From contig JAFDYN010000002.1 of assembly GCA_018267385.1 (NCBI GenBank), positions 130,548 through 194,547 of the forward strand: a stretch of DNA of 64,000 nt, given 5' to 3'. The first letter of the stretch is position 1, and every line of letters begins with the position of its first letter. Origin of the DNA: Bacteroidota bacterium (GTDB taxonomy: Bacteria; Bacteroidota; Bacteroidia; Chitinophagales; LD1). This document shows positions 32,985-53,071 of this stretch, piece by piece. The notes under the pieces were generated by a model, which was not told the DNA's origin, did no database searches, and saw nothing but the letters and a program-made list of their open reading frames with translations. The translations under genes were made by a program, and so were the position numbers.

Positions 32985-33218
32985 ATGCTTTCCGCTATAG
33001 GCAGATTTTTTTCGCAGATACTGGTATACCTGATCAGGGGCTATCAGTTGCTAATATCGCCGCACCTGCCCCGCAGCTGCCGCTACACACCCACCTGCAG
33101 CCAGTACGGCATCCAGGCCCTGCAAAAGCACGGCCCTATCAAAGGCAGCTACCTGACCATCAAGCGCATCCTATCATGCCATCCCTGGGGTGGGCATGGA
33201 TATGATCCTGTGCCTTGA
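32985..33218 (+). CDS. yidD: membrane protein insertion efficiency factor
   Basis: [21 protein letters not shown]...HG..KG..L...[16 protein letters not shown]. The start is taken at the internal ATG. Confidence 0.85.
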
Positions 33219-33374
33219 TACCGCGATCCGGATATCCACTCTCATTTCAAACAAATAACTGGTCATGCACAAGGGTCATGCCGGCTGACACTCATTTGCA
33301 GAGGATGCAAAAACTGGTTAGCTACTATACCGGGAAACCGAAACCCACCCCGGTTCTGATCCTATTGACTCGGT

Positions 33375-36134: not shown

Positions 36135-36163
36135 TTGTATGCTTTACTATCTCTCTTAATCTT

Positions 36164-36916
36164 TTATTTCCCTTCCTCCTTCACCTGCTCCGTTGTCTTG
36201 CCAAACCTGCGCTCTCTATTCTGATAGGTCAGGATAGCCCGGTACAGCTCCTCGCGATCAAACTCCGGCCAGAACTTCTCCGTAAAATAAAACTCTGCGT
36301 ACGCCAGCTGCCACAGCAGAAAGTTGCTGATGCGCTGCTCGCCGCTGGTACGTATCATCAGCTCAGGATCAGGTATACCTGCCGTATACAGCTGGTCTGT
36401 GACCATCTGCTCGGTGATATCCTCTGGTGTCAGCGTACCAGCCTTGGCCGCCGCTGCCATCTGCTTTACAGCACGCACTATCTCTGCCTTGCCACTATAG
36501 TTTAGCGCCAGTATCAGATCCATGCGGCTATTGCCGGCGGTATCAGCTATGGCCTGGCGCAGCTCCCGCGCGGTACTGGCCGGCAGCGCATCCATATCAC
36601 CTATAGCCCTGAGGCGTATATTGTTTTTCTGCAGGGTCTTGATCTCTGAGCGGGTGGTCTTGAGCAGCAGGTCCATGAGTCCCGTCACCTCGAGGATCGG
36701 GCGGTTCCAGTTTTCTGTAGAGAAGGCATACAAGGTCAGGTATTTGACACCCAACTCTGCACAACCCTCCGATACCTCGCGTACCGCAGATACACCATTA
36801 CTATGTCCAAAGAGCCTGTTCTTGCCCTGAGACTTGGCCCAACGGCCATTGCCATCCATGATGATGGCTATGTGCTGCGGGAGCCGGGTCTGGTCTATCG
36901 AGTCTTTGAGGCTCAT
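36164..36916 (-). CDS. uppS: isoprenyl transferase (undecaprenyl diphosphate synthase)
   Basis: HIAIIMDGNGRWA, TLYAFSTENW.RP and IRTSGEQRISNFLLWQLAYAE. Confidence 0.93.
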   Translation of the reverse strand: MSLKDSIDQTRLPQHIAIIMDGNGRWAKSQGKNRLFGHSNGVSAVREVSEGCAELGVKYLTLYAFSTENWNRPILEVTGLMDLLLKTTRSEIKTLQKNNIRLRAIGDMDALPASTARELRQAIADTAGNSRMDLILALNYSGKAEIVRAVKQMAAAAKAGTLTPEDITEQMVTDQLYTAGIPDPELMIRTSGEQRISNFLLWQLAYAEFYFTEKFWPEFDREELYRAILTYQNRERRFGKTTEQVKEEGK

Positions 36917-37202
36917 CTATGGGCTTTGCATTAAACGCCGGATGGTCAAAATATTTTGATCCTGATCAGGCTACGGCTTAATTTAACAATTATACGAAAG
37001 TCGGCAAATATAGCCAATTTGGCGGGTACTCAAAGATGGTGGCGGCCAGCCGGCCTGGCCTGCGGTGAAAAGGTTCCTTTATAAGTTTTTTTGGCAAGTA
37101 GCCTGTCTTGATGGCATTTTGCCGGCAGGGATGGGTCGTTTGTTGCGCAATATTTTGAAATCATTCTAAATATGCCATTTTTGAGATACAACAATTACAT
37201 AA

Positions 37203-38516
37203 ATGAAAAAACTCTTTACCCTCTGCCTCATAGCCATGAGCCTGGCTGCTGCGGCACAATCTCAGCACCGCATACTCTGTGGCAATGAATACCTACTGGA
37301 TCTCACCGAGCAGCGCCACCCGGGCTACAAGGCTGCCGTGCAGCAGGCTTTTGACCGGGCCAAAAATCATAGCGCCAGCCGGGCTACCAATGCGGTGACC
37401 TATACCATACCTATCATCTTTCACGTAGTATATGGTGCGGCGGCGGAGAACCTGGACGATAGTGTCCTGCAGTCTGAGATAGCAGTACTGAATGCTGACT
37501 ATAGCCGCACCAATGCCGATGCGGTGAATACGATCGCTTACTTTGACAGTGTGGGGGCAGATACACATATACAGTTTACGCTTCACAGCACGGTGCGCGT
37601 ACAGACCAGCAATCAGTTTACCCTGGACCTATTCACCGGCCTGCCGGACTCGCTGATCAAGCTGAGCGCAGCCGGTGGTGATGATGCCGTAGATCCTGAC
37701 CACTACCTCAATATATGGATCGTAAACCTGCAGCCGTCACTTTTCGGCCAGCTGCTGGGCTACTCCTATCCGCCGGATGGCCTGCCAAACTGGCCTGCAG
37801 GACAGTCATCTGCCGCACCTCAGCAGGGCTACGATGGTGTGGTGCTCGACTACCGTACGGTAGGTGCCAATAATCCCAATCCCATCAACTTTAGTGGTAT
37901 GAACCTCGTGATCCGTGGCCGCACAGGTACCCATGAGATAGGGCACTACCTTGGCCTCCGCCACATCTGGGGCGATGGAGCTACTTTCGGTACCAACGAC
38001 TGCCAGCAAAGTGATGGTATAGATGATACGCCGTTTGCTAATACGCAATCTAACTTTGACTGCGATACAACCCGCAATACCTGCACCCAGGCAGAGGCCT
38101 ACTACGGTGCCGATGCTCCTGACATGGTGCAGAACTATATGGACTACTCCTCTGAAGAGTGCATGAACCTCTTCACCAAAGGCCAGGCTGCCCTCATGCA
38201 GAACACGCTGGAGGTGAACCGTCCGAACCTGGCGACCAAGTCCTACCCGCTCGGTGTGTCGCAGGCTGTAGCCAACACAGTAGCTATCTATCCTAACCCG
38301 ACTACTGGCATAGTATACATCCGCTACGCGCAAAACTCAGATGCAGCTACTACAGCTACTGTCTATAATATGCTCGGCGAAACAATGGCGGTAACCCAAT
38401 CAACAGCTGTCGGCGCTATAAAACTGGATATGAGTGCCCTCTCGGGTGGTGTCTATACCATAGACCTGCTGAAAGATGGTCAGCATACAACAAAGAAAGT
38501 GGTGCTGAATAAATAA
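37203..38516 (+). CDS. M43 (pappalysin/cytophagalysin-like) zinc metalloprotease with a T9SS C-terminal domain
   Basis: HEIGHYLGLRHIWGD zinc site, a signal peptide, and the C-terminal VAIYPNPTTGIVYI...GVYTIDLL....KKVVLNK. Confidence 0.8.
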   Translation: MKKLFTLCLIAMSLAAAAQSQHRILCGNEYLLDLTEQRHPGYKAAVQQAFDRAKNHSASRATNAVTYTIPIIFHVVYGAAAENLDDSVLQSEIAVLNADYSRTNADAVNTIAYFDSVGADTHIQFTLHSTVRVQTSNQFTLDLFTGLPDSLIKLSAAGGDDAVDPDHYLNIWIVNLQPSLFGQLLGYSYPPDGLPNWPAGQSSAAPQQGYDGVVLDYRTVGANNPNPINFSGMNLVIRGRTGTHEIGHYLGLRHIWGDGATFGTNDCQQSDGIDDTPFANTQSNFDCDTTRNTCTQAEAYYGADAPDMVQNYMDYSSEECMNLFTKGQAALMQNTLEVNRPNLATKSYPLGVSQAVANTVAIYPNPTTGIVYIRYAQNSDAATTATVYNMLGETMAVTQSTAVGAIKLDMSALSGGVYTIDLLKDGQHTTKKVVLNK

Positions 38517-38542
38517 GCATATAATTTACAATCACATCTTGA

Positions 38543-38579
38543 GATGCCATCCCTGAGAGGGATGGCATCGTTATTTTTA
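38543..38579 (+). terminator. rho-independent terminator
   Basis: GATGCCATCCC-TGAGA-GGGATGGCATC, followed by GTTATTTTT. Confidence 0.75.
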
Positions 38580-38650
38580 GTAAGCTCCAAAGGAGCGGAG
38601 CGCCTCAAGCGTAGAGCATCGCCCTACGTAATCTGATCATAAAACAAGTG

Positions 38651-39238
38651 TTACTTCTTCTTAGCCCGCCAGCAGTCGGATGTATGATCATCTACGATAC
38701 CCGTAGCCTGCATAAAGGCATAGCAGATCGTCCCGCCCAGAAACTTAAAGCCCCGCTTCTGCAGGTCTTTGGTGATCTTCTTTGACAGGTCAGTGATAGG
38801 CGGCACATCGCGCAGCGTAGCTGGCCTGTTCACCACAGGCTTGCCACCGGTGAAGCTCCAGATATATTTATCAAAAGAGCCAAACTCCTTCTGTACTTCC
38901 ATGAAGCGCTGGGCATTATTCACTGCTGCCTCTATTTTCAGCCTGTTGCGAATGATACCTTCATCCTGCATCAGCGCCTCTTTCTTCCTTGCATCAAATT
39001 TCGCCACCTTCTTCACATCAAAACCTGCAAAAGCCTTGCGGAAGTTCTCGCGTTTGCGCAGGATCGTGAGCCAGCTCAGCCCCGCCTGGAAGCTCTCAAG
39101 TACCAGAAACTCAAAGAATACAGTATCATCATGCACAGGTCGACCCCATTCTTTATCATGGTAGTCTATATAGATGTCATCTGCAGTGCACCATGCACAG
39201 CGCGTTTTGTTGTCTTTCGGTTTAGTAGCGGTAGCCAT
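38651..39238 (-). CDS. tag: DNA-3-methyladenine glycosylase I
   Basis: RCAWC....Y..YHD.EWG.P.HDD..FFEFL.LE.FQAGLSW..IL.KR..F. The start is taken at the internal Met (MATATKPK). Confidence 0.9.
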   Translation of the reverse strand: MATATKPKDNKTRCAWCTADDIYIDYHDKEWGRPVHDDTVFFEFLVLESFQAGLSWLTILRKRENFRKAFAGFDVKKVAKFDARKKEALMQDEGIIRNRLKIEAAVNNAQRFMEVQKEFGSFDKYIWSFTGGKPVVNRPATLRDVPPITDLSKKITKDLQKRGFKFLGGTICYAFMQATGIVDDHTSDCWRAKKK

Positions 39239-39292
39239 GTGATGAATGTACCGAAAGATTGATAATTTCGATAGCACTAAAAAACTGTTGCT

Positions 39293-39694
39293 ATGAAGTT
39301 TGCCGGTATCGCACTGATGTCCCTCTTTCTTTTAGGCAAAGATAAAACCACGATACAAGTCAATCCGGCCTACTACGGTAGCTATGCCAAACAGGATGCT
39401 AAAGAGCGCGAATGGCTGCTAAAACCCGGTAATAAACCGGATAGGGTAAACTTCTATCAGAATAGCGACACGGTGCACTATCTCTTTTATGTAGTGATGA
39501 AAGATTCGGTACACTTCAGTACCAAGGGCGAATTTGCCGAGCAGCCTGATGGCCAGCCTACCCGCTACTGGAGCGCCAAGGGAGAGTTTTTGCCTGATGG
39601 TCAGATGAAGATGGCCGTCAAGACCTCTGACGCACTGATGAAACTTACAGTAGACCTGGAGGCACAAGAGAAAGTACTTTATATAAAGAAGTGA
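39293..39694 (+). CDS. hypothetical secreted protein
   Basis: 133-aa ORF with a hydrophobic N terminus. I recognised no family. Confidence 0.45.
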   Translation: MKFAGIALMSLFLLGKDKTTIQVNPAYYGSYAKQDAKEREWLLKPGNKPDRVNFYQNSDTVHYLFYVVMKDSVHFSTKGEFAEQPDGQPTRYWSAKGEFLPDGQMKMAVKTSDALMKLTVDLEAQEKVLYIKK

Positions 39695-39921
39695 CAGCCT
39701 ATAAAAAGACTAGCTGCTTTTCGGACAGCGATAATGAGCGTCCCACTTTTTTTACGCTTTAGCATTTTTGCGGTTGACCCGTATTGGATGCGGTCAATAT
39801 TTGTTAATTTCTTCATCCATCCAAAATAAGAATCCGTACTTTCAGTTTGTGAATGTAGGCTACCTGCACAGGTGGCATGATTTTTTCGCTTTTTACCCAA
39901 CCTAACTTTTAAATATCCTAC

Positions 39922-41481
39922 ATGGCTAAAACTACCATCCTCTGGGCTGACGACGAGATAGACCTGCTCAAACCACAAATACTTTTCCTCAAAGACAAAG
40001 GCTACGATGTGATCACCGTGACCAACGGCAAAGATGCCATAGACGGTGTGCAGAAAAACCCAGTAGATGTCGTCTTCCTGGATGAGTCTATGCCCGGCCT
40101 CAGCGGCCTGCAGACACTCACAGAGATAAAGGGGTACAACAGCCAGCTACCAGTGGTGATGATCACTAAGAATGAAGAAGAAAATCTGATGGAAGATGCC
40201 ATCGGCTCTCAGATAGCAGACTACCTGATCAAACCTGTGAAACCGCAGCAGATACTCTCGACGCTTAAAAAGATCATCAATAAAACGGAGCTGGTGAGCG
40301 AGAAAACCGTCTCCGACTACAGGAGCAAATTCCAGCAGCTTTTCACCCGCATACAGGACAACCTCAGCTACCAGGAGTGGGCCGAACTTTACAAGGACCT
40401 TATATATTGGGAGATCGAGCTGGATCGCTCCAAGACCGTAGAGATGCAGGATGTCTTTGAGATGCAGAAAAGCGAGGCCAATACGGAGTTCAATAAATTT
40501 GTGATCAAGAACTACAAGAACTGGATCAAAGGCGAGGCGGGCAAAGATGCACCGATCATGTCTCATACCCTGCTGAAGAGCAAAGTATTTGACCTGATCA
40601 AGCAGCCCAAGCCTACCTTTGTGATACTGATAGACAATCTCCGCTTTGACCAGTGGAGGTCTATACAGCAGCTCATCACGCCTTTCTTTCGTGTGGACGA
40701 GGAGGACACTTTCTATGCTATCCTCCCTACCGCCACTCAGTACAGCCGCAATGCGATCTTCAGCGGTATGATGCCGGCTGATATTCAGAAGAACTTTCCC
40801 GGCAAATGGCTGAATGATGATGATGAGGGCGGCAAGAATATGCATGAAGGTGAGTTTCTCGATGCACTGATCAAGAAGACCTTTCGCGAGCCGATCAAGA
40901 CGCAATACACCAAGATCACTAACCACCGCGATGGCCTGCTGCTGGAGGAGAATATCCTAAACTATCTCAATAACCGCCTGAATGTGATAGTCTATAACTT
41001 TGTGGATATGCTCTCTCATGCCCGTACAGAGATGGAGGTGCTGAAGGAACTGGCCAATGACGAAGCGGCCTATCGTTCACTTTCGGTGTCCTGGTTTGAG
41101 CACTCGCCGCTCTTTAATGCATTGAAGAAACTAGCTGGCAAAGACATCAACCTCGTGATCACCACAGATCATGGGACCGTGAATGTGAAAGACCCATCAA
41201 AGTGTATAGGTGACCGCCAGACCACTACCAATATCCGCTACAAGACTGGCCGCAATCTACAGTACGAGGAGAAAGATGTCTTCGCGGTACGCAATCCGGA
41301 GGAGATCATGCTGCCTAAATCTAACCTGACCTCTACGTACATCTTTGCCAAGACAGACAAATACCTGGTCTATCCCAATAACTACAATCACTTCGTATCA
41401 TACTTCAAGAATACCTTCCAGCATGGTGGTATCTCCCTGGAGGAGATGATCGTGCCGATAGTAAAGCTGAGCAGCAGGTAA
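39922..41481 (+). CDS. porX: T9SS-associated response regulator with a PglZ/alkaline-phosphatase-like output domain (PorX family)
   Basis: Receiver domain (ILWADDE...DVVFLDESMPGLSG...MITK) fused to a PglZ-like domain of about 380 aa. The length of 519 aa matches PorX. Confidence 0.85.
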   Translation: MAKTTILWADDEIDLLKPQILFLKDKGYDVITVTNGKDAIDGVQKNPVDVVFLDESMPGLSGLQTLTEIKGYNSQLPVVMITKNEEENLMEDAIGSQIADYLIKPVKPQQILSTLKKIINKTELVSEKTVSDYRSKFQQLFTRIQDNLSYQEWAELYKDLIYWEIELDRSKTVEMQDVFEMQKSEANTEFNKFVIKNYKNWIKGEAGKDAPIMSHTLLKSKVFDLIKQPKPTFVILIDNLRFDQWRSIQQLITPFFRVDEEDTFYAILPTATQYSRNAIFSGMMPADIQKNFPGKWLNDDDEGGKNMHEGEFLDALIKKTFREPIKTQYTKITNHRDGLLLEENILNYLNNRLNVIVYNFVDMLSHARTEMEVLKELANDEAAYRSLSVSWFEHSPLFNALKKLAGKDINLVITTDHGTVNVKDPSKCIGDRQTTTNIRYKTGRNLQYEEKDVFAVRNPEEIMLPKSNLTSTYIFAKTDKYLVYPNNYNHFVSYFKNTFQHGGISLEEMIVPIVKLSSR

Positions 41482-41506
41482 AATAGTAGATTATCGTATC
41501 TTCACG

Positions 41507-41555
41507 CTACCAGCGGGAGTAGCTCAGGGGTAGAGCGTCAGTTTCCCAAACTGAA
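41507..41555 (+). repeat. attL direct repeat (CTACCA + tRNA-Gly nt 1-43)
   Basis: Identical to 46304..46352 by direct reading. Confidence 0.8.
41513..41555 (+). pseudogene. truncated tRNA-Gly(CCC) fragment (acceptor 5' arm through the anticodon stem-loop; no T arm or 3' acceptor)
   Basis: GCGGGAGTAGCTCAGGGGTAGAGCGTCAGTTTCCCAAACTGAA, then unrelated sequence. Confidence 0.8.
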
Positions 41556-41610
41556 TAAGGCGAACCTTCAAACCATTGATAGCACTACGTTTCAGCATTA
41601 GTCGGCCTGC

Positions 41611-41631
41611 ATTTGCCTGTTTTTTGCCTGC
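41611..41631 (+). repeat. two direct TTTGCCTG(T/C) motifs (candidate integrase arm-type sites, left end)
   Basis: ATTTGCCTGT and TTTTGCCTGC. The same motif recurs three times at the right end. Confidence 0.45.
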
Positions 41632-42303
41632 TTGGTAGTTAGAAAATTTGTTTACGTCTATTGTGTCAGGCGAATCTAAAAGATAGCCTGCTAAGTGATA
41701 ATAAAGGGAGCAAAGTATCTCATCTGCTCCCTTAGACCGCACCAGTCGGCAGGCTATTCCTGTAGGGTTGCTCTCCAGCATTGCCCTATTCCGCTTTACC
41801 TGCTGTCAGGTGTTAAGCTCCTGCACTATGTGATACCCACCACGAGTTATGCCTTTAAAAAACTCATGTATTTTATATTATGCAAAATACGCTATAAGAT
41901 AGATCTCATCCTGCACTTTGACGTTTCATCAAAACACCTCGGTTTATATATCCTTGGGGCAAGGTTTTGGCTGGGATATACAAAAGAGGCTGCCCGTTCA
42001 AGGTGACAGCCTCTGCTCCTGCTTCTTCAACAGCTTTATCTTCTTTTACGAGCCAAAACCTAGTTCAAAAAGCATGGGAAGAATCGTATAAGGCTCGAAT
42101 GGTGGATGTACACAGAGCACTGACCGAACCATTAATGCTAATGACTCATTCAAAGGGGTCTTTATGATCGCTTTTCATCTGGGGGTCAATCGAGTGGGGG
42201 GGGGGTATACCAAAAACTAAATACAACCCGGGGGTCTCTGTAATAGGAGTTGAAGGAAACAGATACCTCTACAAATATAGGGTGCCTAATTTTGCAGAAT
42301 CGG

Positions 42304-42816
42304 CTAAAGACTCTTTGCCCAGTGAATCATACTTGCCTGTTGTCTTTTTTTCCACCTTGTGAGATAGTCATCATAGCTTTTTGCATCCTGAATTTCTTTC
42401 CTGTGATAAGATCGAGATAGTCTGACACTATGTTTGTAATCCCAATAGTTTACAATGGTCATCAGTAGTCCAATTATCGTTAGTATACCGCAGATGAACC
42501 AAACAATTATGCCTACTGCCATAGCTTGGGCAATAGGTGGGAGTAATATCATCAATAACTCCACAAGACCGAAGCTCACGAACAATGCTACCAATACAAA
42601 GAGAAATACGAGAAGTTCTTTCAAAAATGATTTGAAGTTTATAGAGCGATCAGGCACCACTGTATTATACATGTCCGGCTTTGATTGTAGATAGTTGAAC
42701 TGTTGAATGCTGAGCGGCTTACTATCCTCAACATACATGAATTTCTTATAAAATAGATGTGCCTTACCTGCGTAAATCATGGGTCTAAGATATAAAGTTA
42801 ATTGCGAATAGGTCAT
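42304..42816 (-). CDS. small membrane protein, function unknown (island cargo)
   Basis: 170 aa with two long hydrophobic segments (LLVFLFVLVALFVSFGLVELLMILL and AMAVGIIVWFICGILTIIGLLMTIV). It is divergent from the XRE regulator. Confidence 0.55.
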   Translation of the reverse strand: MTYSQLTLYLRPMIYAGKAHLFYKKFMYVEDSKPLSIQQFNYLQSKPDMYNTVVPDRSINFKSFLKELLVFLFVLVALFVSFGLVELLMILLPPIAQAMAVGIIVWFICGILTIIGLLMTIVNYWDYKHSVRLSRSYHRKEIQDAKSYDDYLTRWKKRQQASMIHWAKSL

Positions 42817-42843
42817 ATATGACCTAATAAAATTTTGTATACA
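42811..42843. promoter_or_regulatory. two palindromes in the divergent XRE/membrane-protein control region
   Basis: GGTCATATATGACC (42811..42824) overlaps the ATG of the membrane-protein ORF. TGTATACA is at 42836..42843. Confidence 0.45.
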
Positions 42844-42859
42844 GTTGTCTATTCACTAG

Positions 42860-43147
42860 GTGAAATCAAAAATTGATATACCTAGCAAAAAAAGAGGCAA
42901 GTCTTATAGGGATGAGGCCGGTATAAAAATGTTTGGTAGCCGGATGCGTGAGATAAGGAAGTCCCTAAACATAACTCAGGAAGAATTGGTCAGGCGCAGC
43001 GGATTTGATTTAAGGCAGATTGGCCGCATCGAGCGTGGTGAAGTGAGTACTAATCTGAGCCATGTTTTTAAAATAGCCGAGTGTCTTGGCATTTCGGTAC
43101 AGGAATTATTCACTTTCCCACCTGCAGATATCAAAAAAAGAAAATAG
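42860..43147 (+). CDS. XRE-family helix-turn-helix transcriptional regulator
   Basis: IRKSLNITQEELVRRSGFDLRQIGRIERGEVSTNLSHVFKIAECLGISVQELF. The listed start is GTG, and the ATG at 42929 is an alternative. Confidence 0.8.
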   Translation: MKSKIDIPSKKRGKSYRDEAGIKMFGSRMREIRKSLNITQEELVRRSGFDLRQIGRIERGEVSTNLSHVFKIAECLGISVQELFTFPPADIKKRK

Positions 43148-43299
43148 TATCAGTTAAATCACAGAAAAACGTGTTTTGAATGACCTTTGGGTTGTCTACT
43201 GATAAAAACTTATTTTTGTACTATCGCAGCAACCATCTATGCTGTGATGGACATATTCCCTGAGGATAGCTTTATTCATCTGAACACCGCACCTCCGAG

Positions 43300-43379
43300 A
43301 AAGTCACCTATCTCCGGTATCCCATACTGTTGAGAGATAGTAGGTGACTTTGTATTTTATAATTTTTAAAATACAAAGT
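43300..43379. promoter_or_regulatory. nested inverted repeats immediately upstream of the ATPase gene (operator or origin-like)
   Basis: AAAGTCACCTATCTC (43300..43314) pairs with GAGATAGTAGGTGACTTT (43334..43351). A perfect 13-bp inverted repeat, ACTTTGTATTTTA (43347..43359) and TAAAATACAAAGT (43367..43379), ends 1 nt before the ATG. Confidence 0.5.
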
Positions 43380-43380
43380 T

Positions 43381-44433
43381 ATGTTCAAAAATCAACAAGA
43401 ACAGACAGATTCGGTAGGTGGTACCAACTATACCGTATCACTCAGAGAAATGATGGAGAGGGTAAAGACTGAGCCTCCCCAAAAAATGATATACTCAGGT
43501 ATCAAAGAAAATTCAGTTGGGTTTATATTTGGACCCAGTAAATCCGGCAAGACTACATTTTGTGAAAACCTAGCGCTGAGCATCGCATCGGGGCAGTTTG
43601 AATATCTTGGCAAGCCAATCAATTCGACAAACAGAAAAGTACTTTTTCTATCCCTCGAAGAATTTTACTCAGGCAGAACAAATAGAAATATAAAACAAGT
43701 AGAGGCAATCACAACACATGTCTCGGGTGATACGTGGATAGACAATTATATAGTCGCCACAAATAATATCCCACGTTACGTCACAGAAAAAGAGGATTGG
43801 AAGATCATTAGCAATGAAATAAAGAAGCATGCCCCTGGGCTTGTGATAATAGACTCTGCCAGCCGATTGCATAATGGCCCCATAGAGGACAGTACAGAGG
43901 CGAAATTACTAATGAAGCAACTCAGAGAATTGGCATTGGACGTGTCTACCACCATCATTGTGATTCACCATACGCCCAAACTATACAATATGCCTTTGTC
44001 TATTTATGCACTGGCGGGTAGTAGAATACTCGCACAGGAAGCAGATTTTATGATAGGCATAAACAAAACACTGGATGGCAAAATCTATCTGAAGGAAGTA
44101 GCATTCAGATATGCGCCTGAGGATTGTGAAACAGTATCCCTCTTACAGATGGACGACCATCAATGGTTTAGTGTAATTGGCAAAGCAGATGAAGCTTCGC
44201 TGCTTTCAGCTTTTGATGGGCGCAAAGATGAGCATAACAAGGCTGCTATCTTCGAATATATTCAAGAGCGTAATGCTAATGGCGGGGCAGTTGTCACCAC
44301 CGAGGAACTCTTTACTCTATTTGTTGAATCAAAGGTATGTAGCAAGGATACACTTCACAAGGCATTAAATTCTCTTGTGGCAGAAAAGAAAATTCAAAAG
44401 CCACAGAAAGGTCACTACAAAATGCCTGCCTAA
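43381..44433 (+). CDS. RecA/AAA-type (AAA_25/RepA-like) ATPase with a C-terminal winged-helix-like tail
   Basis: Walker A GPSKSGKTT, Walker B LVIIDSASRL, and the C-terminal LNSLVAEKKIQKPQKGHYKM. Confidence 0.7.
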   Translation: MFKNQQEQTDSVGGTNYTVSLREMMERVKTEPPQKMIYSGIKENSVGFIFGPSKSGKTTFCENLALSIASGQFEYLGKPINSTNRKVLFLSLEEFYSGRTNRNIKQVEAITTHVSGDTWIDNYIVATNNIPRYVTEKEDWKIISNEIKKHAPGLVIIDSASRLHNGPIEDSTEAKLLMKQLRELALDVSTTIIVIHHTPKLYNMPLSIYALAGSRILAQEADFMIGINKTLDGKIYLKEVAFRYAPEDCETVSLLQMDDHQWFSVIGKADEASLLSAFDGRKDEHNKAAIFEYIQERNANGGAVVTTEELFTLFVESKVCSKDTLHKALNSLVAEKKIQKPQKGHYKMPA

Positions 44434-44552
44434 TTATCCTGACTATCCATACTACCCTGACTCAAGACGTACTTTATCAAAGTTAGTCAGCATAGTCAGG
44501 GTAGTCGGGATAGTTTAGAACGTATTTATTACTTTAGTAAAAAAATACAACT

Positions 44553-44993
44553 ATGAATGAAACAGAAAAGAAGGAGAAACTGAGTACATCTCAGGAAATA
44601 GTACCGGCAGATTGGTTTTTGAGCCTCTTTGTTAATCTCGCCAATAAAACTGGATTGGGATTTGATATTACTATAGTAACGCAGGGATATTTAGTATGTG
44701 GCAAATTGATCAGCGGGAAACAGTATTTCGAAGAAACCTCTGCTATGTTCAAAGATAATCCATCAGAGATTGCAGAGACTTTAGCAACTTCGATTGAATC
44801 GTATGGCGATAAAATTTATGGTGAGGGGGGGGATAAGCCAGTCCCCCCTCCATCATACATACATCTTAAAGAAGCTCGTTTTTTTAACGGCCAGAGTAAA
44901 CCGCTTCCAGCCAATCGTGGTGTTCTGTGGAGAGGCAGACTTTCAGAAGTTAGTGGCTTCTTTATTGGTATATTAAATAGCGAGACTACTTAG
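44553..44993 (+). CDS. small hypothetical protein, GvpU-like by recalled motif pattern
   Basis: FVNLANKTGLGFDITIV.QGYLVCGKLISGKQYF ... IHLKEARFF ... LWRGRLSEVSGFFIG resembles my recollection of gas-vesicle accessory GvpU-family proteins. This is unverified. Confidence 0.45.
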   Translation: MNETEKKEKLSTSQEIVPADWFLSLFVNLANKTGLGFDITIVTQGYLVCGKLISGKQYFEETSAMFKDNPSEIAETLATSIESYGDKIYGEGGDKPVPPPSYIHLKEARFFNGQSKPLPANRGVLWRGRLSEVSGFFIGILNSETT

Positions 44994-46189
44994 ATCTTAC
45001 TCACGGATAATATCATCTCGTCTATCACCTCCTGATCAAATGTATCAAGATAGATACCTGTGACTTTATTACCGAACTCATGTCCCAATGCCTCAGCTAT
45101 GAGGTCTTTGCTGTAACCCATACGCTTGGCTATGGTCGCTGCGCTATGACGTGACACGTAGGTGGTCAGATGACCGATGTTAAGTGCTGTGCCTATCTGC
45201 TTGAGATATTTATTGACAGTTTTGGTAGCCTGCTGTATATGCCTACGCTCCAGCTCTGGGTCGCCTGCTGAACTCTCCGGCACTACAGGTAATATGTATG
45301 TACGCTCAGGGCTGTAATAGTACTGTATTAGCTCCCACGCAGTAGATGTGAGCTTGATATTATACAGCTTATGGGTTTTCTTCCGCCTATACGAGATACG
45401 TCCCTTGATTATATCAGTATATTTGAGAGTAGCCAAATCTACAAATGATGCCCCAAAGAGATTGAATGATAGCATGAAGAAATTACGAGCATGCCACGCG
45501 GGGCTATCTCGTTCTATGTCCATAGCAACTATGGCCTTTATGTCCTCCTTACTTATATTTCTTTTGGCAGTGGCCTCCATCTTGATTCTGTAGCTCTCAT
45601 AGGGATAGTTTGCGCGGTCTATAAGCTTCTCTTTGATGGCCCTGTTGTATATAGCCCTAATAGTGCGCATGTACATGGCTATCCCATTTACAGTCAGACC
45701 ACCTGCGAGCATCTTGCTTTCCAACTTCTGTAGAAATTCATAGCTGACCTCGCTGAATTGTATAGTCTGCCTGCCAGTGTATGTTTTGAGTGCACTGATA
45801 GCTGACTGGTAAAATAGGGCATTCCCATACTTTTTACTCTCCCTCAGATCAAGTACGATCTTCTGTGCAAACTGAATGACATCCATCTTCACTACAGGTT
45901 TGACCACAGTAGTCTTTATCTTGCCTGCGGTGGCCTGCTCTTCTGCCAACTCAATCTTTAGTGCTGTGCCTTGTAACTGTACCAGCGTCTGGGTGATTTT
46001 TTGATTGATCTCTTTCTTGTTTGGGTGCTTTACGACCCTCTGTGTGGCTTCATCAAACTCCTCTTTGCATACAGAGGTTTTTAAATTGATGTCCCGCCTG
46101 CTGCTGCCACTATGGATTCTGATAATAAGCGGATAGGTGCCATCTTTTAGCTGTCTGCGTGTGTCCAGCTTTACCTTGAACTTTGCCAT
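44990..46189 (-). CDS. tyrosine-type site-specific integrase (Bacteroidota arm-binding-domain type)
   Basis: 399 aa. The N terminus (KFKVKLDTRRQLKDGTYPLIIRI) is arm-domain-like. The C-terminal catalytic region is SRHSAAT...LGHEFGNKVTGIYL. Confidence 0.9.
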   Translation of the reverse strand: MAKFKVKLDTRRQLKDGTYPLIIRIHSGSSRRDINLKTSVCKEEFDEATQRVVKHPNKKEINQKITQTLVQLQGTALKIELAEEQATAGKIKTTVVKPVVKMDVIQFAQKIVLDLRESKKYGNALFYQSAISALKTYTGRQTIQFSEVSYEFLQKLESKMLAGGLTVNGIAMYMRTIRAIYNRAIKEKLIDRANYPYESYRIKMEATAKRNISKEDIKAIVAMDIERDSPAWHARNFFMLSFNLFGASFVDLATLKYTDIIKGRISYRRKKTHKLYNIKLTSTAWELIQYYYSPERTYILPVVPESSAGDPELERRHIQQATKTVNKYLKQIGTALNIGHLTTYVSRHSAATIAKRMGYSKDLIAEALGHEFGNKVTGIYLDTFDQEVIDEMILSVSKI

Positions 46190-46221
46190 TGGATTATGGG
46201 GGTTAATCCAAACGGGCTAAA

Positions 46222-46286
46222 ATTTGCCTGCTATTTGCCTGTCTATAGGCCGAACTATGCTAATCTATGTTTTGGGGATTGCCTGT
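46222..46286 (+). repeat. three direct (A/G)(T)TTGCCTG(C/T) motifs (candidate arm-type sites, right end)
   Basis: ATTTGCCTGC at 46222, ATTTGCCTGT at 46233 and GATTGCCTGT at 46277. Confidence 0.45.
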
Positions 46287-46303
46287 GTTTCCTTAGTTTC
46301 ACC

Positions 46304-46352
46304 CTACCAGCGGGAGTAGCTCAGGGGTAGAGCGTCAGTTTCCCAAACTGAA
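46304..46352 (+). repeat. attR direct repeat
   Basis: Identical to 41507..41555. Confidence 0.8.
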
Positions 46353-46381
46353 GGCCGCGGGTTCGAGACCCGTTTCCCGCT
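46310..46381 (+). tRNA. tRNA-Gly (anticodon CCC)
   Basis: Hand-folded cloverleaf: acceptor GCGGGAG/TTCCCGC, D arm GCTC-AGGGGTA-GAGC, anticodon arm TCAGT-TTCCCAA-ACTGA, variable loop AGGCC, T arm GCGGG-TTCGAGA-CCCGT, discriminator T. No CCA is encoded. Confidence 0.9.
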
Positions 46382-46428
46382 CATATTTTTTTGGCAGCTT
46401 TTCACTGACGGTATTAAACTACTACCTA

Positions 46429-47676
46429 TTGCCTATCCGTATCCACTATCACGATGGCCGGCCACGTGTGACCTGGGATCTGCACCTGGTCATAAATATC
46501 AGGATCATATACCTCATAGGTATTTTGGCATTGCCCTATTTGATCTGGGAGCTATACTGGGCCGGGCATGTAGGCTACGCTTGTATCAAATGGCATACTC
46601 ACCTCGCCATATATTTTTACTTTGGGTTGGCCACCAGTCTGATACTCGAGCTACTGGTAAAGCGTCCCGCGTCCTGGCAACTGGCTGTAGCATCTCTATG
46701 TACCAGTGTCATGCTAGCCGAAGGTGTACTGATGCTGGCAGGTATCGGTACTACCTATAGTGAGCGGATGGGCTATGGCTATAGTTCTATCTATTCTACG
46801 AAAGGGGAGAGCTACTATCGCACACGTGTACCAGGTTCTGTCTTTTGGTTTGACAGGTCTGAGTTTCGACATGAATGGCATGTCAACTCTATGGGCTACT
46901 CTGACCGCGAATGGCCCATAGCCAAAAAGCCCGGCGAAAAACGTATCCTATGCCTGGGCGACTCATGGACGGAGGGTATAGGTGCCCCGCAGGACTCTTC
47001 CTATGTGAGTCAACTGGGAAGGATACTGGCAGCAATAGACAGCAATACCTATGTCATGAATGCCGGCATAGCTGCAGATGACCCGTTTGTAAACTATGTC
47101 AACTACCGTGACCGCCTGATAGCATATCATCCCGATGTCATCATTCAGACACTTTCTGGAAACGATATGACGACAGATATCCTGTCCAAAGGCGGAATGG
47201 AAAGATTTGGTGCCAATGGGGAACTTCATACCGCGGCCGGACCAGCTTGGGAGCCACTCTATGCTTTGAGCTATGTATCGCGACTGGTATTCCACGCCAT
47301 TGGCTACAATGCACTGCTACAAAAGGCACCCACACCGGAAACGATCAAAGAGCTAAACGAGAAGGTGGTAAATCTTTTCAGCGTCTATGCCAGCATGGCC
47401 TCGAGGCAAGGTACTATGCTCATCGTGGTGATCCAGGCTTCAGACCATGACTATGATTTTGGTCCGATCATAACCGGTCTCCGGCAGATACATGGGTTGA
47501 AAGTATGTGATCTTCAGGATTATTATAACGCCGAATTTTCTAAGAGAGGCAGCGATCCTGAGAAATATTACTGGCCCATTGATGGACATCACACACCCCG
47601 TGGCTACCAACTGATGGCGCGCAGCATTTATCATGCTTTGGATTCATTTTACCTCAATCCGACTGCTTCTAAGTAG
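46429..47676 (+). CDS. membrane-anchored SGNH/GDSL-family hydrolase (start uncertain)
   Basis: Block I is ILCLGDSWTEGIG and block V is IDGHHTPRGY. The N terminus is hydrophobic and the listed start is TTG. Confidence 0.7.
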   Translation: MPIRIHYHDGRPRVTWDLHLVINIRIIYLIGILALPYLIWELYWAGHVGYACIKWHTHLAIYFYFGLATSLILELLVKRPASWQLAVASLCTSVMLAEGVLMLAGIGTTYSERMGYGYSSIYSTKGESYYRTRVPGSVFWFDRSEFRHEWHVNSMGYSDREWPIAKKPGEKRILCLGDSWTEGIGAPQDSSYVSQLGRILAAIDSNTYVMNAGIAADDPFVNYVNYRDRLIAYHPDVIIQTLSGNDMTTDILSKGGMERFGANGELHTAAGPAWEPLYALSYVSRLVFHAIGYNALLQKAPTPETIKELNEKVVNLFSVYASMASRQGTMLIVVIQASDHDYDFGPIITGLRQIHGLKVCDLQDYYNAEFSKRGSDPEKYYWPIDGHHTPRGYQLMARSIYHALDSFYLNPTASK

Positions 47677-47694
47677 TCGATACAATACTGTGGC

Positions 47695-48429
47695 TTACAT
47701 CCCCTGCTTCTTGCGAAAGCGGATATTGAGTACCTCTACACCTATGGAGAAAGCCACTGCCACATAGACAAAGGTCTTGTCTACCTCGTGGCCAAAGCCC
47801 TCCATGATCAGCGTGACACCTATCATGATCAGAAAGGATAGTGCCAGCATCTGGATGGTCGGATATTTAGCTACCAGCCGGCCTACCGGCTGGGTAAAGA
47901 GCATCATGATAGCGATAGAAAGCACTACCGCCATGATCATCACTGCCAGCTGGTCGGCTATACCTACCGCAGTCAGTATCGAGTCAAAAGAGAATACGAT
48001 ATTGAGTACCGCTATCTGTATCAGTACAGAGAAGAAAGCTCCGCTCCGCTCACTGCTGCTCACGTGAAACTCATCATCATCTCCTGTCAGTTTGTGGTGT
48101 ATCTCAGAGGTAGATTTGTAGATCAGGAAGACACCACCCGCTATCAGGATGATCCCCTTGCCAGTCAGCTCAAAACCCCAGGAGGCCGGCAGCAGGTTTT
48201 CCTTCAGGCTCAGTATCCACCCCAGGAAGAACAAGAGCACGATACGCAGCACCATGGCCAGCAGCAAGCCGATATTCTGGCCCAGCTTGCGCTTGTCCTC
48301 CGGTAGCTTTTGCGTCACGATAGAGATGAAGATGATATTGTCCACCCCGAGCACGATCTCCAGAAAGGTGAGGGTGAGCAGGCTGACCCAGGCTGAGGTG
48401 TGGGCAAATACGGTGAAGTCGATATTCAT
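47695..48429 (-). CDS. TerC-family integral membrane protein
   Basis: LEIVLGVDNIIFISI and FSFDSILTAVG motifs with multiple TM segments. The start is taken at the internal Met (MNIDFTVF). Confidence 0.85.
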   Translation of the reverse strand: MNIDFTVFAHTSAWVSLLTLTFLEIVLGVDNIIFISIVTQKLPEDKRKLGQNIGLLLAMVLRIVLLFFLGWILSLKENLLPASWGFELTGKGIILIAGGVFLIYKSTSEIHHKLTGDDDEFHVSSSERSGAFFSVLIQIAVLNIVFSFDSILTAVGIADQLAVMIMAVVLSIAIMMLFTQPVGRLVAKYPTIQMLALSFLIMIGVTLIMEGFGHEVDKTFVYVAVAFSIGVEVLNIRFRKKQGM

Positions 48430-48618
48430 AACGGCTAAAAATAGCATTTTAGAAAATATGTAGACGTAGCTGGTCGTCTTATATTGCTGCAATACGGTGA
48501 TTTCCCATGTAAATAAAAACATTAACTAATATGTTCTCTTTTATATGGGATATGCCGAAAATAATCTATGCAAGTGTTTTGATTTAATTACATTTGGTGC
48601 GCTCAAAAAATTTATACC

Positions 48619-49905
48619 ATGGCTAATAACGCAACACTCACCTACGATGGCAAATCGTACGACCTGCCGGTGATCACAGGTACCGAAAACGAAAGTGCTA
48701 TAGACATCTCTAAGCTCCGCGGCCAGTCCGGCCTCGTGACATATGACGAGGGGTACAAGAATACAGGCGCTACGCAGTCTGCTATCACCTTCCTGGATGG
48801 TGAGAAAGGCATCCTGCGCTACCGTGGCTATAATATAGAAGACCTGGCCGAGAAGGCCACCTTCACTGAGGTCAGCTACCTGCTGCTCTATGGTGAGCTG
48901 CCTACTGCTGAGCAGCTGAAAAAATTTGAGTCTGACCTGACCATGCATACACTGGTGCATGAGAACCTGGTCAAGGTGTTTGAGGTTTTCCCGTCAAAGA
49001 GCCACCCTATGGGCCAGCTCATGACCGCACTCTCTGCATTGTCCTCTTTCTACCCTGAGTCTCTCAACCCTAATAATAAGCCCGAGGAGACAAACATGAC
49101 CATCATCCGCCTGCTGGCCAAAATGCCTACTATCACTGCGATGATCATGAAGAAGGGCAAGGGCCATCCGGTACTCTACCCTCAGAATAAGTACGACTAT
49201 GTGACCAACTTTCTCTATATGACCTTTGGCAATGTGACCAGCGAGTACATGGCCGATCCTGTAGTGGTAGATGCGATGAATAAGCTCCTCATACTGCACG
49301 CAGACCATGAGCAGAACTGCTCTGCCTCTACCGTGCGTATAGTAGGCTCCTCTCACGCTAACCTGTACGCCTCTGTGGCTGCAGGTGCTGCTGCCCTCTG
49401 GGGTCCACGCCACGGCGGTGCCAATCAGGAGGTACTCGAGATGCTGGAAGACATCCAGAACAACTATGGTGGCAATGTAGCCAAAGTAGTAGATGAGGCC
49501 AAGGACAAGAAGCGCCTCCTCTTCGGCTTCGGTCACCGCGTGTACAAAAACTTTGATCCACGTGCCAAGATCATCAAGGTGGCATGTGACAATATCCTCA
49601 ATAAGCTGGGCATCAATGACCCGCTGCTCGAGATAGCCAAGGAGCTGGAGCAAGTGGCCCTCAAGGACCCATACTTCGCAGAGCGCAAGCTGTATCCTAA
49701 CGTAGACTTCTACTCCGGTATCATCTACAAGGCACTGGGCTTCCCTACGCCTATGTTCACTGTTCTCTTTGCCCTGGGCCGTATGCCGGGCTGGGTATCT
49801 CAGTGGAAGGAGATGCGTGAGCGCAAAGAAGACATCGGCCGCCCTCGTCAGATCTACACCGGCGCTACACAGCGTCCGTTCGTAGGCATCAAGGACAGGA
49901 AGTAA
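48619..49905 (+). CDS. gltA: citrate synthase
   Basis: LILHADHEQNCSASTVR, GPRHGGANQEV, GFGHRVYKNFDPRA and the length of 428 aa. Confidence 0.95.
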   Translation: MANNATLTYDGKSYDLPVITGTENESAIDISKLRGQSGLVTYDEGYKNTGATQSAITFLDGEKGILRYRGYNIEDLAEKATFTEVSYLLLYGELPTAEQLKKFESDLTMHTLVHENLVKVFEVFPSKSHPMGQLMTALSALSSFYPESLNPNNKPEETNMTIIRLLAKMPTITAMIMKKGKGHPVLYPQNKYDYVTNFLYMTFGNVTSEYMADPVVVDAMNKLLILHADHEQNCSASTVRIVGSSHANLYASVAAGAAALWGPRHGGANQEVLEMLEDIQNNYGGNVAKVVDEAKDKKRLLFGFGHRVYKNFDPRAKIIKVACDNILNKLGINDPLLEIAKELEQVALKDPYFAERKLYPNVDFYSGIIYKALGFPTPMFTVLFALGRMPGWVSQWKEMRERKEDIGRPRQIYTGATQRPFVGIKDRK

Positions 49906-49919
49906 TTCTCCTACATTAT

Positions 49920-49968
49920 ATCAATAAAGCGAAAAGGCGGGTTGTCCCCGCCTTTTCGCTTTATTGAT
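49920..49968 (+). terminator. terminator formed by a 22-bp perfect-stem palindrome
   Basis: ATCAATAAAGCGAAAAGGCGGG-TTGTC-CCCGCCTTTTCGCTTTATTGAT. Confidence 0.8.
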
Positions 49969-50115
49969 ATCCGACAAATCAGCTTCCAAAAAAATATTTA
50001 TCGAAAACCTGCTATTGTACCAAATATTTTGAAGACTGGCGCGTCCTAATTGGAACAAACATTCTAAATGATCGGATGTTTGATTGTGTTCATTCAAACC
50101 ATAAAAAATTAAGAA

Positions 50116-50859
50116 ATGTCAACTAACAAGAAAGTAGCGCTGATCACTGGCGCCAACAAAGGTATCGGCCTCGAAACAGCTCGCCAGCTCGGCCAGCAAG
50201 GTATCACAGTACTCATAGGAGCCCGCGATGAAAGCCGTGGCAAAGAAGCTGCTGCAAAGCTTACCTCTGAGGGTATAGACGCACATTATATCAAGGTAGA
50301 TATGGAGCAGCCGGCAGGCTTCCAGGCTGTGCATGATGAGATAGCCAGGACCTATGGCAAACTGGATATCCTCGTGAATAACGCAGGCATACAGGCAGAG
50401 GAGGCGGGCTGGGGCCAGAACACGGTGACCTCTACCAGCTATGCAGACCTGCTCAAGACCTTTGATGTAAATGTCTTTAACCTGATAGGTCTCACGCAGA
50501 CACTGCTGCCGCTGATCCGCAAGGCGGATGCTGGCCGTGTGGTCAACCTCTCCAGTATACTGGCGTCGCTACACCTGCATGCTACACCTGGCTCACCTAT
50601 CTATGACTCCAAGGCCTTTGCCTACGATATGTCAAAGACTGCCCTGAACCAGTTCACCGTACACCTGGCCCATGCGCTGAAGGATACCAATATCAAAGTC
50701 AACTCCGCTCACCCGGGATGGGTCAAGACAGATATGGGCACTGATGCTGCACCGATGGAGATACCTGATGGAGCCAAGACCTCAGTGCGACTGGCTACGC
50801 TCCCGGCAGATGGTCCTACAGGAGGCTACTTCCACCTGAATGATACCTTGCCTTGGTAG
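50116..50859 (+). CDS. SDR-family short-chain dehydrogenase/reductase
   Basis: TGANKGIGLE cofactor motif, NNAG and Y..SK catalytic elements. Confidence 0.88.
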   Translation: MSTNKKVALITGANKGIGLETARQLGQQGITVLIGARDESRGKEAAAKLTSEGIDAHYIKVDMEQPAGFQAVHDEIARTYGKLDILVNNAGIQAEEAGWGQNTVTSTSYADLLKTFDVNVFNLIGLTQTLLPLIRKADAGRVVNLSSILASLHLHATPGSPIYDSKAFAYDMSKTALNQFTVHLAHALKDTNIKVNSAHPGWVKTDMGTDAAPMEIPDGAKTSVRLATLPADGPTGGYFHLNDTLPW

Positions 50860-50883
50860 TTTTACCGAGGTTCTCTATATACA

Positions 50884-50911
50884 AAGAAAGCCGGCTTGTG
50901 CCGGCTTTCTT
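50884..50911. terminator. bidirectional terminator between the SDR gene and gldH
   Basis: AAGAAAGCCGGC-TTGT-GCCGGCTTTCTT. Confidence 0.75.
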
Positions 50912-50928
50912 TATTTCTATCTCTTTAG

Positions 50929-51426
50929 TTATTGATTTTGCCCCTGTAGCGGCTTAGCCTTTTCTATCCTAAGGCCTACGCTCTTAATCTTCTCCAGTGG
51001 GTCTACTCGCATATCCTGCCGCAGTGTGAAGGTATACTTGCCCGGCATAGGAAACCTGGCGTCATGCTGGATCATCACCGGCACATCACAGTTATCTCCG
51101 AGGCAGGAGCCGTACCATTTGCCATCCGGCTCACAGAGGGGCAGGTTCACACGCTTCTCCATCTTCTTGCCATCGGGTAGCTGTGTGCCTACCTGCACAT
51201 ATACATTGCGCCAGTCAAACTGAAAGGAATGCCTGAGATTGATGTAGATATTGTATCGTGTAGTAGTGTCCTGTACATCTACAGTGTATGATTTGATATC
51301 AGCGTAAGACCATTTCTCGCTCTTCACGGGAGTATTGGTCTCATAGAGACGGTTAGGATCACAAGACGACAGCAGGACCGCGCTTGCTGCCAGGATCGCC
51401 AGAGATATGCGCTTCATACCAGTCAT
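50929..51426 (-). CDS. gldH: gliding motility lipoprotein GldH
   Basis: About 160-aa lipoprotein (LLSSCD) immediately downstream of a PSP1-domain gene, which is the conserved Bacteroidota arrangement. It has the W..........RH...F.W.N pattern. Confidence 0.72.
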   Translation of the reverse strand: MTGMKRISLAILAASAVLLSSCDPNRLYETNTPVKSEKWSYADIKSYTVDVQDTTTRYNIYINLRHSFQFDWRNVYVQVGTQLPDGKKMEKRVNLPLCEPDGKWYGSCLGDNCDVPVMIQHDARFPMPGKYTFTLRQDMRVDPLEKIKSVGLRIEKAKPLQGQNQ

Positions 51427-51428
51427 TA

Positions 51429-52934: not shown

Positions 52935-52968
52935 TTATATAGCTATTGTCACTGTTATTATAATATAT

Positions 52969-52998
52969 AAAAATCCGTCCCTATCTCAGGACGGATTT
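52969..52998 (-). terminator. rho-independent terminator of the NHL-repeat gene
   Basis: AAATCCGTCC-CTATCTCA-GGACGGATTT, with a T run on the minus strand. Confidence 0.65.
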
Positions 52999-53071
52999 CT
53001 TCACCTAGCGAATATAGCACAAAATGTGGATAAATCAGAGGGTTCAAAGTGGTGCCGCAGCCTTGTCACGT

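Follow-up and report, generated by a model that had tools for sequence, protein, structure and literature searches.

The DNA analysed here (the window) is a stretch of 64,000 nucleotides (nt) from a metagenome-assembled genome (MAG) of a Bacteroidota bacterium (assembly GCA_018267385.1, contig JAFDYN010000002.1). In this window a gene for a PorX-type response regulator with a PglZ domain (porX, 39922-41481) is adjoined by a truncated copy of tRNA-Gly(CCC). A segment with five convincing open reading frames (ORFs), one of them a tyrosine integrase gene, separates this copy from the intact tRNA-Gly(CCC) gene, 4.8 kb away at the other end, which is followed by a GDSL hydrolase gene (46429-47676). 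The segment is, with high confidence, a small integrative element, a 4,797-bp unit integrated at the tRNA gene in reversed orientation. Coordinates are collected in Table 1, and loci of relatives are numbered from L001 upward.

Limits and orientation of the element

A repeat search found an exact direct repeat of 49 nt at the ends of the segment, with a start-to-start spacing of 4,797 bp. With one mismatch allowed, the repeat reaches 55 nt (41501-41555 and 46298-46352). It consists of CTACCA followed by nt 1-43 of tRNA-Gly(CCC), that is, the acceptor 5' strand, the D arm, the complete anticodon stem-loop TCAGT-TTCCCAA-ACTGA and one further nt. An exact repeat of this length in 64 kb cannot plausibly have arisen by chance. 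ARAGORN calls a single tRNA in the window, the intact gene, which scores 65.3 bits in Rfam; the left fragment reaches 23.7 bits, under the threshold. The interior of the element has a GC fraction of 0.414 compared with 0.493 and 0.497 in the 10-kb flanks. The start codon of the integrase lies 120 nt from the 5' end of the intact tRNA. An initial annotation of this DNA, made from the letters alone, had described a perfect 49-bp repeat around an AT-rich segment of ~4.8 kb, a left copy that keeps only tRNA nt 1-43, an integrase gene abutting the intact tRNA and a functional gene whose 5' half and upstream region lie inside the element. All of these are borne out, coordinates included, the repeat being identical at 49 of 49 positions, and the tRNA-finder check that it proposed gave the single call mentioned above.

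An intact tRNA gene and a co-oriented cognate fragment with an integrase gene between them, the configuration of a tRNA-gene (tDNA) island in Islander, is what is found here, both tRNA sequences being on the + strand. The fragment is a 5' fragment that lies 4.8 kb upstream of the intact gene, the side on which Islander expects 5' fragments (3' fragments are expected downstream), and the element therefore falls in the 5'-fragment minority class. Zhao and Williams were the first to report, in 2002, recombination with the 5'-distal part of a tRNA gene, which is described as 'considerably less frequent' than use of the 3' part (PMC6563490). In Islander 159 islands carry a 5' tDNA fragment and 3,760 a 3' fragment (PMC4383910), and the 5'-fragment arrangement is 'seldomly encountered in bacteria' (PMC8371274). 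The 5'-fragment orientation, which the initial annotation regarded as the mirror image of known islands, is thus confirmed, but its novelty was overstated: the arrangement is a documented minority class and is not new.

Table 1. Features of the integrated element and its junctions, in window coordinates.
Feature	Position	Strand	Basis and remarks
Distal attachment junction: host-derived upstream nt and truncated tRNA-Gly(CCC) nt 1-43 (41513-41555)	41507-41555	+	Exact repeat; Rfam below threshold
Native -7-like box TATCTTCA	41497-41504		Upstream of distal junction; flank matches empty sites L167-L171 and L173
Proximal repeat copy, 5' half of the intact tRNA gene contributed by the element	46304-46352	+	Sequence, repeat search
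Intact reconstituted tRNA-Gly(CCC) gene	46310-46382	+	ARAGORN; Rfam; identical to the uninterrupted L173 gene
Anticodon stem-loop, putative core site	46335-46351	+	Inside the intact tRNA gene
Tyrosine integrase, 399 aa	44990-46189	-	Pfam Arm-DNA-bind_5, Phage_int_SAM_5, Phage_integrase; divergent from tRNA
Distal candidate arm-type sites for integrase binding, a pair (ATTTGCCTG and TTTTGCCTG) with 11-bp spacing	41611-41630	+	Repeat and motif search
Proximal pair of candidate arm-type sites, ATTTGCCTGCTATTTGCCTG	46222-46241	+	Repeat and motif search; pair kept across the family
Candidate element-borne tRNA promoter: TTTG (46271-46274), 19-nt spacer, TAGTTTCA (46294-46301)	46271-46301	+	Ends 8 nt before tRNA +1; register matches the native box TATCTTCA
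Predicted membrane protein, 170 aa, cargo	42304-42816	-	Weak family matches only
HTH_3 (XRE/Cro-C1 type) regulator, 95 aa	42860-43147	+	Pfam HTH_3, E = 6.9e-13; PHROG repressor families
AAA_25 (RepA/DnaB-like) ATPase, 350 aa	43381-44433	+	Pfam AAA_25, E = 1.3e-22; PHROG primase/helicase families
GvpU-matching protein, 146 aa	44553-44993	+	NCBIfam NF041667, 100.6 bits (cut-off 70); phrog_14356, unknown function
Near-perfect palindrome, 33 bp, ACTTTGTATTTTATAA-T-TTTTAAAATACAAAGT	43347-43379	.	Repeat search; directly before the ATPase start
Conserved non-coding block, candidate structured RNA ending in a terminator-like hairpin	41699-41897	-	Conserved in L007 and L008

Empty and otherwise occupied sites

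PorX homologues with 97-99% identity were found by protein search, and their contigs show the site. In L173, from a related MAG (GCA_018267415.1), the order is porX, 29 nt, tRNA-Gly(CCC), 38 nt, GDSL, TerC and citrate synthase. Window positions 29906-41555 and 46298-53693 are colinear with this contig at 81-88% identity. The overlap between these alignments is exactly the repeat; hence the 4,797 bp are simply absent from L173. Five Logan contigs (L167-L171), probably from the same species as the window to judge from their sequence, match the left flank at 96% nucleotide identity across 11.6 kb. They run from porX through the tRNA beyond nt 43 into GGCCGCGGGTTCGA, an uninterrupted host attachment site (attB). 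The site is thus unoccupied in L173, where the GDSL gene comes next, and in L167-L171. The empty site foreseen in the initial annotation (porX, intact tRNA-Gly, SGNH hydrolase) is accordingly present in L173. Relatives carrying the segment with neither repeat nor integrase, which that annotation had named as the finding that would speak against an insertion, were not encountered; L173 and L167-L171 have the site empty.

A third state is seen in GCA_018267365.1 (JAFDYQ010000034.1, one contig entered both as L172 and as L002). The same PorX is followed there by tRNA nt 1-41 and then by a different element of ~17.5 kb, with an integrase 63% identical to that of the window, an AAA_25 ATPase, DUF3871 and a 1,423-aa protein. 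At its far end come the intact tRNA and a GDSL homologue, and the orientation is reversed as in the window. The coordinates of the site are 11590-11631 in L172 and 3635-3707 in L002. The tRNA-Gly(CCC) site is an integration hot spot with three states, and both of its occupants are reversed.

Other searches added less. Exact look-up of the window PorX and integrase in the contig index gave no match. A metagenome scan with PorX returned relatives of at most 76% identity, with no tRNA-Gly beside porX, no flank synteny and no empty site. Contigs found through the GDSL gene (L163-L166) begin within or just upstream of the tRNA; L164 has a non-PorX ORF upstream and is therefore a partial witness of the empty site only. 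Among PorX relatives at 89-93% identity synteny is lost. In L176 (11561-11809; 93% PorX identity), tRNA-Gly(CCC) lies ~250 nt downstream of porX behind an AT-rich spacer and is followed by cytochrome and radical-SAM genes in place of the GDSL gene, which could be a rearrangement or an old element scar. Breaks of Logan contigs also recur within tRNA-Gly(CCC), either at nt 28-30 or in the T arm (starts of L162, L163 and L166; ends of L167-L171). These breaks are probably an assembly-graph effect of the conserved tRNA sequence and were not used for or against occupancy.

The integrase family and its orientation toward tRNA genes

The integrase has the three domains of the heterobivalent, Bacteroidota-type enzymes (PF17293, E = 5e-14; PF13102, E = 1e-18; PF00589, E = 4e-11). 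In an alignment of 44 sequences, with the window protein as first row, R210, R347, H370 and Y380 are invariant, and the integrase carries all invariant residues. The four residues named make up the catalytic Arg...Arg...His...Tyr series, with catalytic roles assigned by motif position. A single-sequence search of the PDB gave no match for the integrase, and the alignment profile gave only weak C-terminal matches. No close integrase was found in the phage and plasmid collections, and the family is nearly absent from IMG/VR.

Homologues at E <= 1e-20 numbered 1,689. With one genome per species, 80 integrase loci were scanned, and a tRNA gene was counted if it lay at most 600 nt upstream of the integrase (int) start codon. 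Such a tRNA was found at 66 of the 80 loci, at an observed distance of 84-421 nt. In 46 of these int and tRNA are co-directional, the usual orientation with the element 3' of the tRNA; in the other 20 they are divergent, the reversed orientation with the element on the 5' side. Among the tRNA-adjacent loci of this family the reversed share is thus about 30%; in Islander it is about 4%.

The closest relative in the protein search (P0004, locus L161, 71% identity) likewise lies at tRNA-Gly(CCC) in divergent orientation, and its repeats are again ATTTGCCTG. In a neighbour-joining tree the window integrase groups with L001-L010, a clade whose targets are Gly-CCC, Met-CAT, Arg-ACG and Lys-CTT and in which 9 of the 10 tRNA-bearing members are reversed. 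Elsewhere in the tree, and within this clade, near neighbours occupy the same tRNA with opposite polarity (L055/L057, L069/L070, L015/L020, L052/L034 and L010/L004). There are thus at least five pairs of integrases, 62-75% identical in amino acid sequence and with near-identical arm motifs, that share a target tRNA and differ in orientation. A tentative reading, possible but far from secure, is that the polarity of the element attachment site (attP) toward its target tRNA has flipped repeatedly in this family, and that integrase occupancy could also modulate the host tRNA. The number of switches is approximate, since the tree was built by a quick distance method. If this reading is true, the elements would alternately donate a promoter with the 5' half or the 3' half with a terminator, and the window clade would be almost uniformly reversed. 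The donated tRNA promoter would lie inside the region of arm sites and int promoter, and it is for this reason that integrase occupancy could affect the host gene.

A degenerate extra tRNA-Val-like copy is present in L070 (~200-300) between int and the intact tRNA-Val, which suggests a remnant of serial or tandem integration.

Position of the crossover

Distal repeats were checked only where the flanking sequence sufficed. In reversed elements the repeat covers tRNA positions -6 to 43 in the window, -32 to 43 in L007, -37 to 43 in L008, -55 to 43 in L036, 1 to 51 in L070 and about 1 to 41 in L172/L002. In elements of usual orientation it extends to the 3' end from nt 28 in L021, 27 in L051, 30 in L056 and 33 in L069, and several others have near-full-length tRNA duplicates. 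L013, L019, L022, L029 and L044, all of usual orientation, are bounded by two almost full-length tRNA copies, both called by ARAGORN, so that the attP of these elements would hold nearly the whole gene.

Reversed identity blocks thus end at nt 41-51 and the four usual blocks confined to the 3' half start at nt 27-33. The anticodon loop with its stem is the sole segment common to all identity blocks, which would place the crossover in the anticodon stem-loop, and intersection of the reversed and usual blocks bounds strand exchange to about nt 27/33-41. A mismatch at -7, where the element-side copy has C and the host flank and the empty sites have G, puts the crossover to its right. The window block (-6 to 43) contains the anticodon loop and its symmetric stem, in agreement with the initial annotation. 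Loop and stem together make up the 'A' sublocation, the classical symmetric one (PMC4383910; PMC8371274). These comparisons of sequence point to a crossover in the anticodon stem-loop of tRNA-Gly(CCC).

A lone element cannot place the crossover inside its own identity block, here nt -6 to 43, which leaves room for strand exchange elsewhere in the 49-bp block, in the D arm or at the 5' end of the gene. Such a position is hardly to be expected, as it lies outside the one segment shared by blocks of both orientations. The anticodon segment, moreover, has the 5-7-5 dyad expected of a tyrosine-recombinase core, and the likeness of integrases and arm motifs in the opposite-orientation pairs argues that they probably share one core.

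Candidate arm-type sites

The motif TTGCCTG occurs 18 times in the window. Seven copies are within the element, all on the + strand, and five of these are located at most about 130 bp from the two ends, as pairs 11 bp apart, in line with the motifs that the initial annotation had noticed near both ends. One copy beyond the proximal pair is at 46279-46285. The distal pair has a counterpart at the equal position in L007, L008, L036 and L070, and every verified reversed element has a tandem pair in direct orientation near each end. The sequence of the motif is element-specific: ATTTGCAAG in L007 and L008, (T)TCTCAAAC in L036 and TTACAAGCA in L070. The architecture is conserved family-wide, with the proximal tandem pair 25-60 nt upstream of the int ATG, in constant orientation, in both polarity classes. 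Between opposite-polarity neighbours the arm motifs are almost identical. This co-variation is the pattern that arm-type sites bound by the N-terminal domain of the integrase would show, and the pairs are candidates for such sites. Since the arm pair is fixed relative to int in both classes, a switch of polarity would flip the core (tRNA) segment only, relative to int and the arms.

Promoter of the reconstituted tRNA gene

The -7 box of Bacteroidota sigma-A is TAnnTTTG at -12 to -5 (PMC9723704). A promoter scan of sigma-70 type does not apply to this phylum and was set aside. A perfect TAnnTTTG within 40 nt of the tRNA, on its upstream side, is present in 25 of 39 usual loci, where it is native, and in 8 of 22 reversed loci, where it is element-borne; a further 9 of the 22 match five of the six fixed positions. 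Shuffled sequences match in 1-2% of cases. tRNA-Gly(CCC) has a variant native box, T(T)ATCTTCAC, which is conserved both in the empty sites (L164 and L167-L175) and in the displaced left flank of the window. This native box, TATCTTCAC, is mimicked on the element side in the same register by TAGTTTCAC in the window, TATCTTCAC in L002 and TATATTCAC in L003, and in L002 the spacer between box and tRNA has diverged. In L007, L008 and L036 the identity of attP and attB runs 32-55 nt upstream, so that the native promoter was copied outright. Usual-polarity elements present the mirror image and supply the 3' half followed by a terminator-like hairpin.

The window element probably supplies the promoter of the intact tRNA, a proposal of the initial annotation that gains support from this comparative sequence evidence. 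Alternatively, the element could have integrated as described and left the tRNA without an element-borne promoter. The gene would then be silent, with tRNA-Gly(UCC) covering GGG, or would be transcribed by read-through or from the integrase-divergent regulatory region, and only under certain conditions. The -7-like box of the window is weak (TAnnTTCA, four of six fixed positions), and tRNA-Gly(CCC) is dispensable in many bacteria. However, the same weak box (TAnnTTCAC) is the conserved native box of the empty sites, and its retention in three element attP regions despite diverged tRNA spacers suggests selection. Other reversed elements carry a perfect TAnnTTTG at native-like distances, and the block in L007, L008 and L036 copies the whole native promoter. 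A tRNA without an element-borne promoter is, on this evidence, improbable.

Other genes of the element and its mobility

Homologues of the AAA_25 ATPase with 47-50% identity are found in other elements of the integrase family (L002, L003, L068 and L079), and a replication or maintenance function for the excised element is likely. A GTATTTT...AAAATAC sequence related to the palindrome before the ATPase gene is located at 41867-41890, beside the conserved non-coding block; the two are possible operators for the helix-turn-helix (HTH) protein, or an origin. Between the ATPase and GvpU-like genes is an inverted repeat (44442-44462 and 44494-44514) with 21-nt arms, 90% complementary, and a 31-nt spacer. 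The ORF adjoining the integrase exceeds the NCBIfam cut-off for the gas-vesicle accessory protein GvpU; none of the four remaining ORFs of the element was recognised as a gas-vesicle gene.

With Pfam, PHROG and NCBIfam profiles, no capsid, terminase, relaxase or recognisable excisionase was found in the five ORFs. PHROG and Pfam matches are limited to the integrase, the repressor-type HTH protein and the helicase-like ATPase, with none of the virion structural or packaging genes of a prophage. Relaxase or conjugation families that would mark an integrative mobilisable or conjugative element are likewise absent from the five ORFs, though an oriT could escape a sequence-only search.

The ~750 bp at 41556-42303 have no convincing ORF. 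ORFs called there were rejected as genes, having no family matches and a frame that is not kept in L008. The region contains a non-coding block of ~200 nt that is conserved in three reversed elements (also L008 5831-6047 and L007 18543-18757), at the equal position 150-340 nt inside the distal end in all three, with its reading frame broken by indels. RNAalifold on the three sequences predicts 41 pairs, 14 with compensatory change, and a hairpin with a U-run at the end, on the minus strand. The single-sequence z-score is -2.1. No Rfam match was obtained, and the core motif is absent from IMG/VR. The block is a candidate for an element-encoded small RNA, according to this folding.

These findings bear on an alternative in which a larger element has decayed to an immobile remnant, still bounded by its attachment sites and unable to excise or transfer. 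Its length of only 4.8 kb, the genes not recognised (excisionase, relaxase, structural proteins) and the ~750 bp devoid of a convincing ORF would fit such a remnant, as would relatives of 9-17 kb or more at the same or similar sites. The repeats, on the other hand, are identical throughout, the integrase ORF and both candidate arm-site pairs are intact, the integrase retains every family-invariant residue, and near-identical genomes have an empty site. L008 is an independent element of 4.7 kb with the same layout, and the apparently empty 750 bp hold the block conserved in L007 and L008. A decayed remnant is thus unlikely, though less so than the alternatives for crossover and promoter, and the element may still be mobile.

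A model for integration

In the proposed mechanism, the tyrosine integrase would have recombined attP with the host tRNA-Gly(CCC) gene at its anticodon stem-loop, in the reverse of the usual orientation. The core site would likely have the 7-nt anticodon loop as overlap region and the 5-bp inverted stem arms as flanks. The paired ATTTGCCTG repeats with 11-bp spacing in both arms would likely be binding sites for the N-terminal arm-binding domain of the integrase. The attP would carry a copy of the promoter-proximal region and of tRNA nt 1-43. After integration, the intact gene is a chimera in which a 5' half and a probable promoter from the element precede the 3' half of the host gene. The 5' half of the host gene, with its original promoter, is displaced by 4.8 kb and left beside porX as a dead fragment. 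The HTH regulator, the RepA/DnaB-like ATPase and the two unknowns would regulate and maintain the excised circle. On excision the model predicts an attP junction TTCACCCTACCA-tRNA nt 1-43-TAAGGCGAACC and a restored attB TTCACGCTACCA-full tRNA.

Several points weigh against this model. The distal repeat was verified in 6 of 21 reversed cases (the window and 20 loci), the others being unverified because too little sequence was available or the elements are longer than the 10-kb flank. The circular attP junction pattern was not found in IMG/VR. With no excisionase, relaxase or capsid gene recognised, autonomy is uncertain. The box of the window departs from the consensus as stated above; the native promoter of tRNA-Gly(CCC) is equally divergent, and native read-through from porX is possible.

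Comparison with known systems

Like other 5'-fragment tDNA islands, the element is an integrase-bearing island between an intact tRNA and a co-oriented upstream 5' fragment, the 5' part of the regenerated gene is element-derived and the attachment site is centred on the anticodon. It differs in host phylum and in integrase lineage; for these islands Islander gives counts only. According to a review, bacterial recombinant tRNA genes retain the original promoter 'with very few exceptions' (PMC8371274). Among archaea, the pTN3-like integrases of Thermococcales use the tRNA 5' half as attB and the recombinant tRNA is expressed from element DNA (PMC8371274), as the sequence suggests for the window. 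They are 'suicidal' integrases of the SSV type, their own gene being split on integration; transcription of the tRNA is said to start from the integrase promoter. In contrast, int in the window stays intact and is divergent from the tRNA, so that a separate promoter is needed; the sequences are unrelated.

CTnDOT, NBU1 and NBU2, with IntDOT/IntN-type integrases, and Bacteroides phages share with the window the three domains Arm-DNA-bind_5, SAM_5 and catalytic, and arm-type sites, which in the window are candidates. NBU1 and NBU2 target tRNA-Leu and tRNA-Ser genes at the 3' end; CTnDOT is not known to use a tRNA gene. None of the three is close in sequence, and the window element is without recognised mobilisation genes. 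Bacteroides phage and plasmid integrases are distant as well (25-36% identity to the window integrase). In the tRNA-dependent lysogeny of actinobacteriophages (PMC10865867), attB also overlaps the anticodon region and the host tRNA supply depends on element DNA. There the core is only ~10 bp, and the loss of the host tRNA is made good by a separate tRNA that the phage encodes, whereas in the window the host gene is rebuilt exactly.

In the literature covered, neither this Bacteroidota family nor its switching of polarity was found described; key papers were beyond reach, and no claim of priority is made. What is added to the known class is a locus in three states, mimicry of a promoter, and a family with about 30% of its tRNA-adjacent loci reversed. 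In annotation, this class should be allowed for by island finders built around 3' fragments and by tRNA callers when they come upon 5' halves. Placement of a host tRNA gene under the control of a mobile element is an uncommon outcome of tRNA-targeted integration. Closely related genomes provide an empty site, a 4.8-kb occupant and a 17.5-kb occupant, together with an integrase family of both polarities. This comparison set could address how attP gains the 'other half' of a tRNA gene and whether element promoters faithfully replace the native one. If the polarity reading is true and has not been described before, the family would offer a natural series in which to study the rebuilding of attP at a change of polarity.

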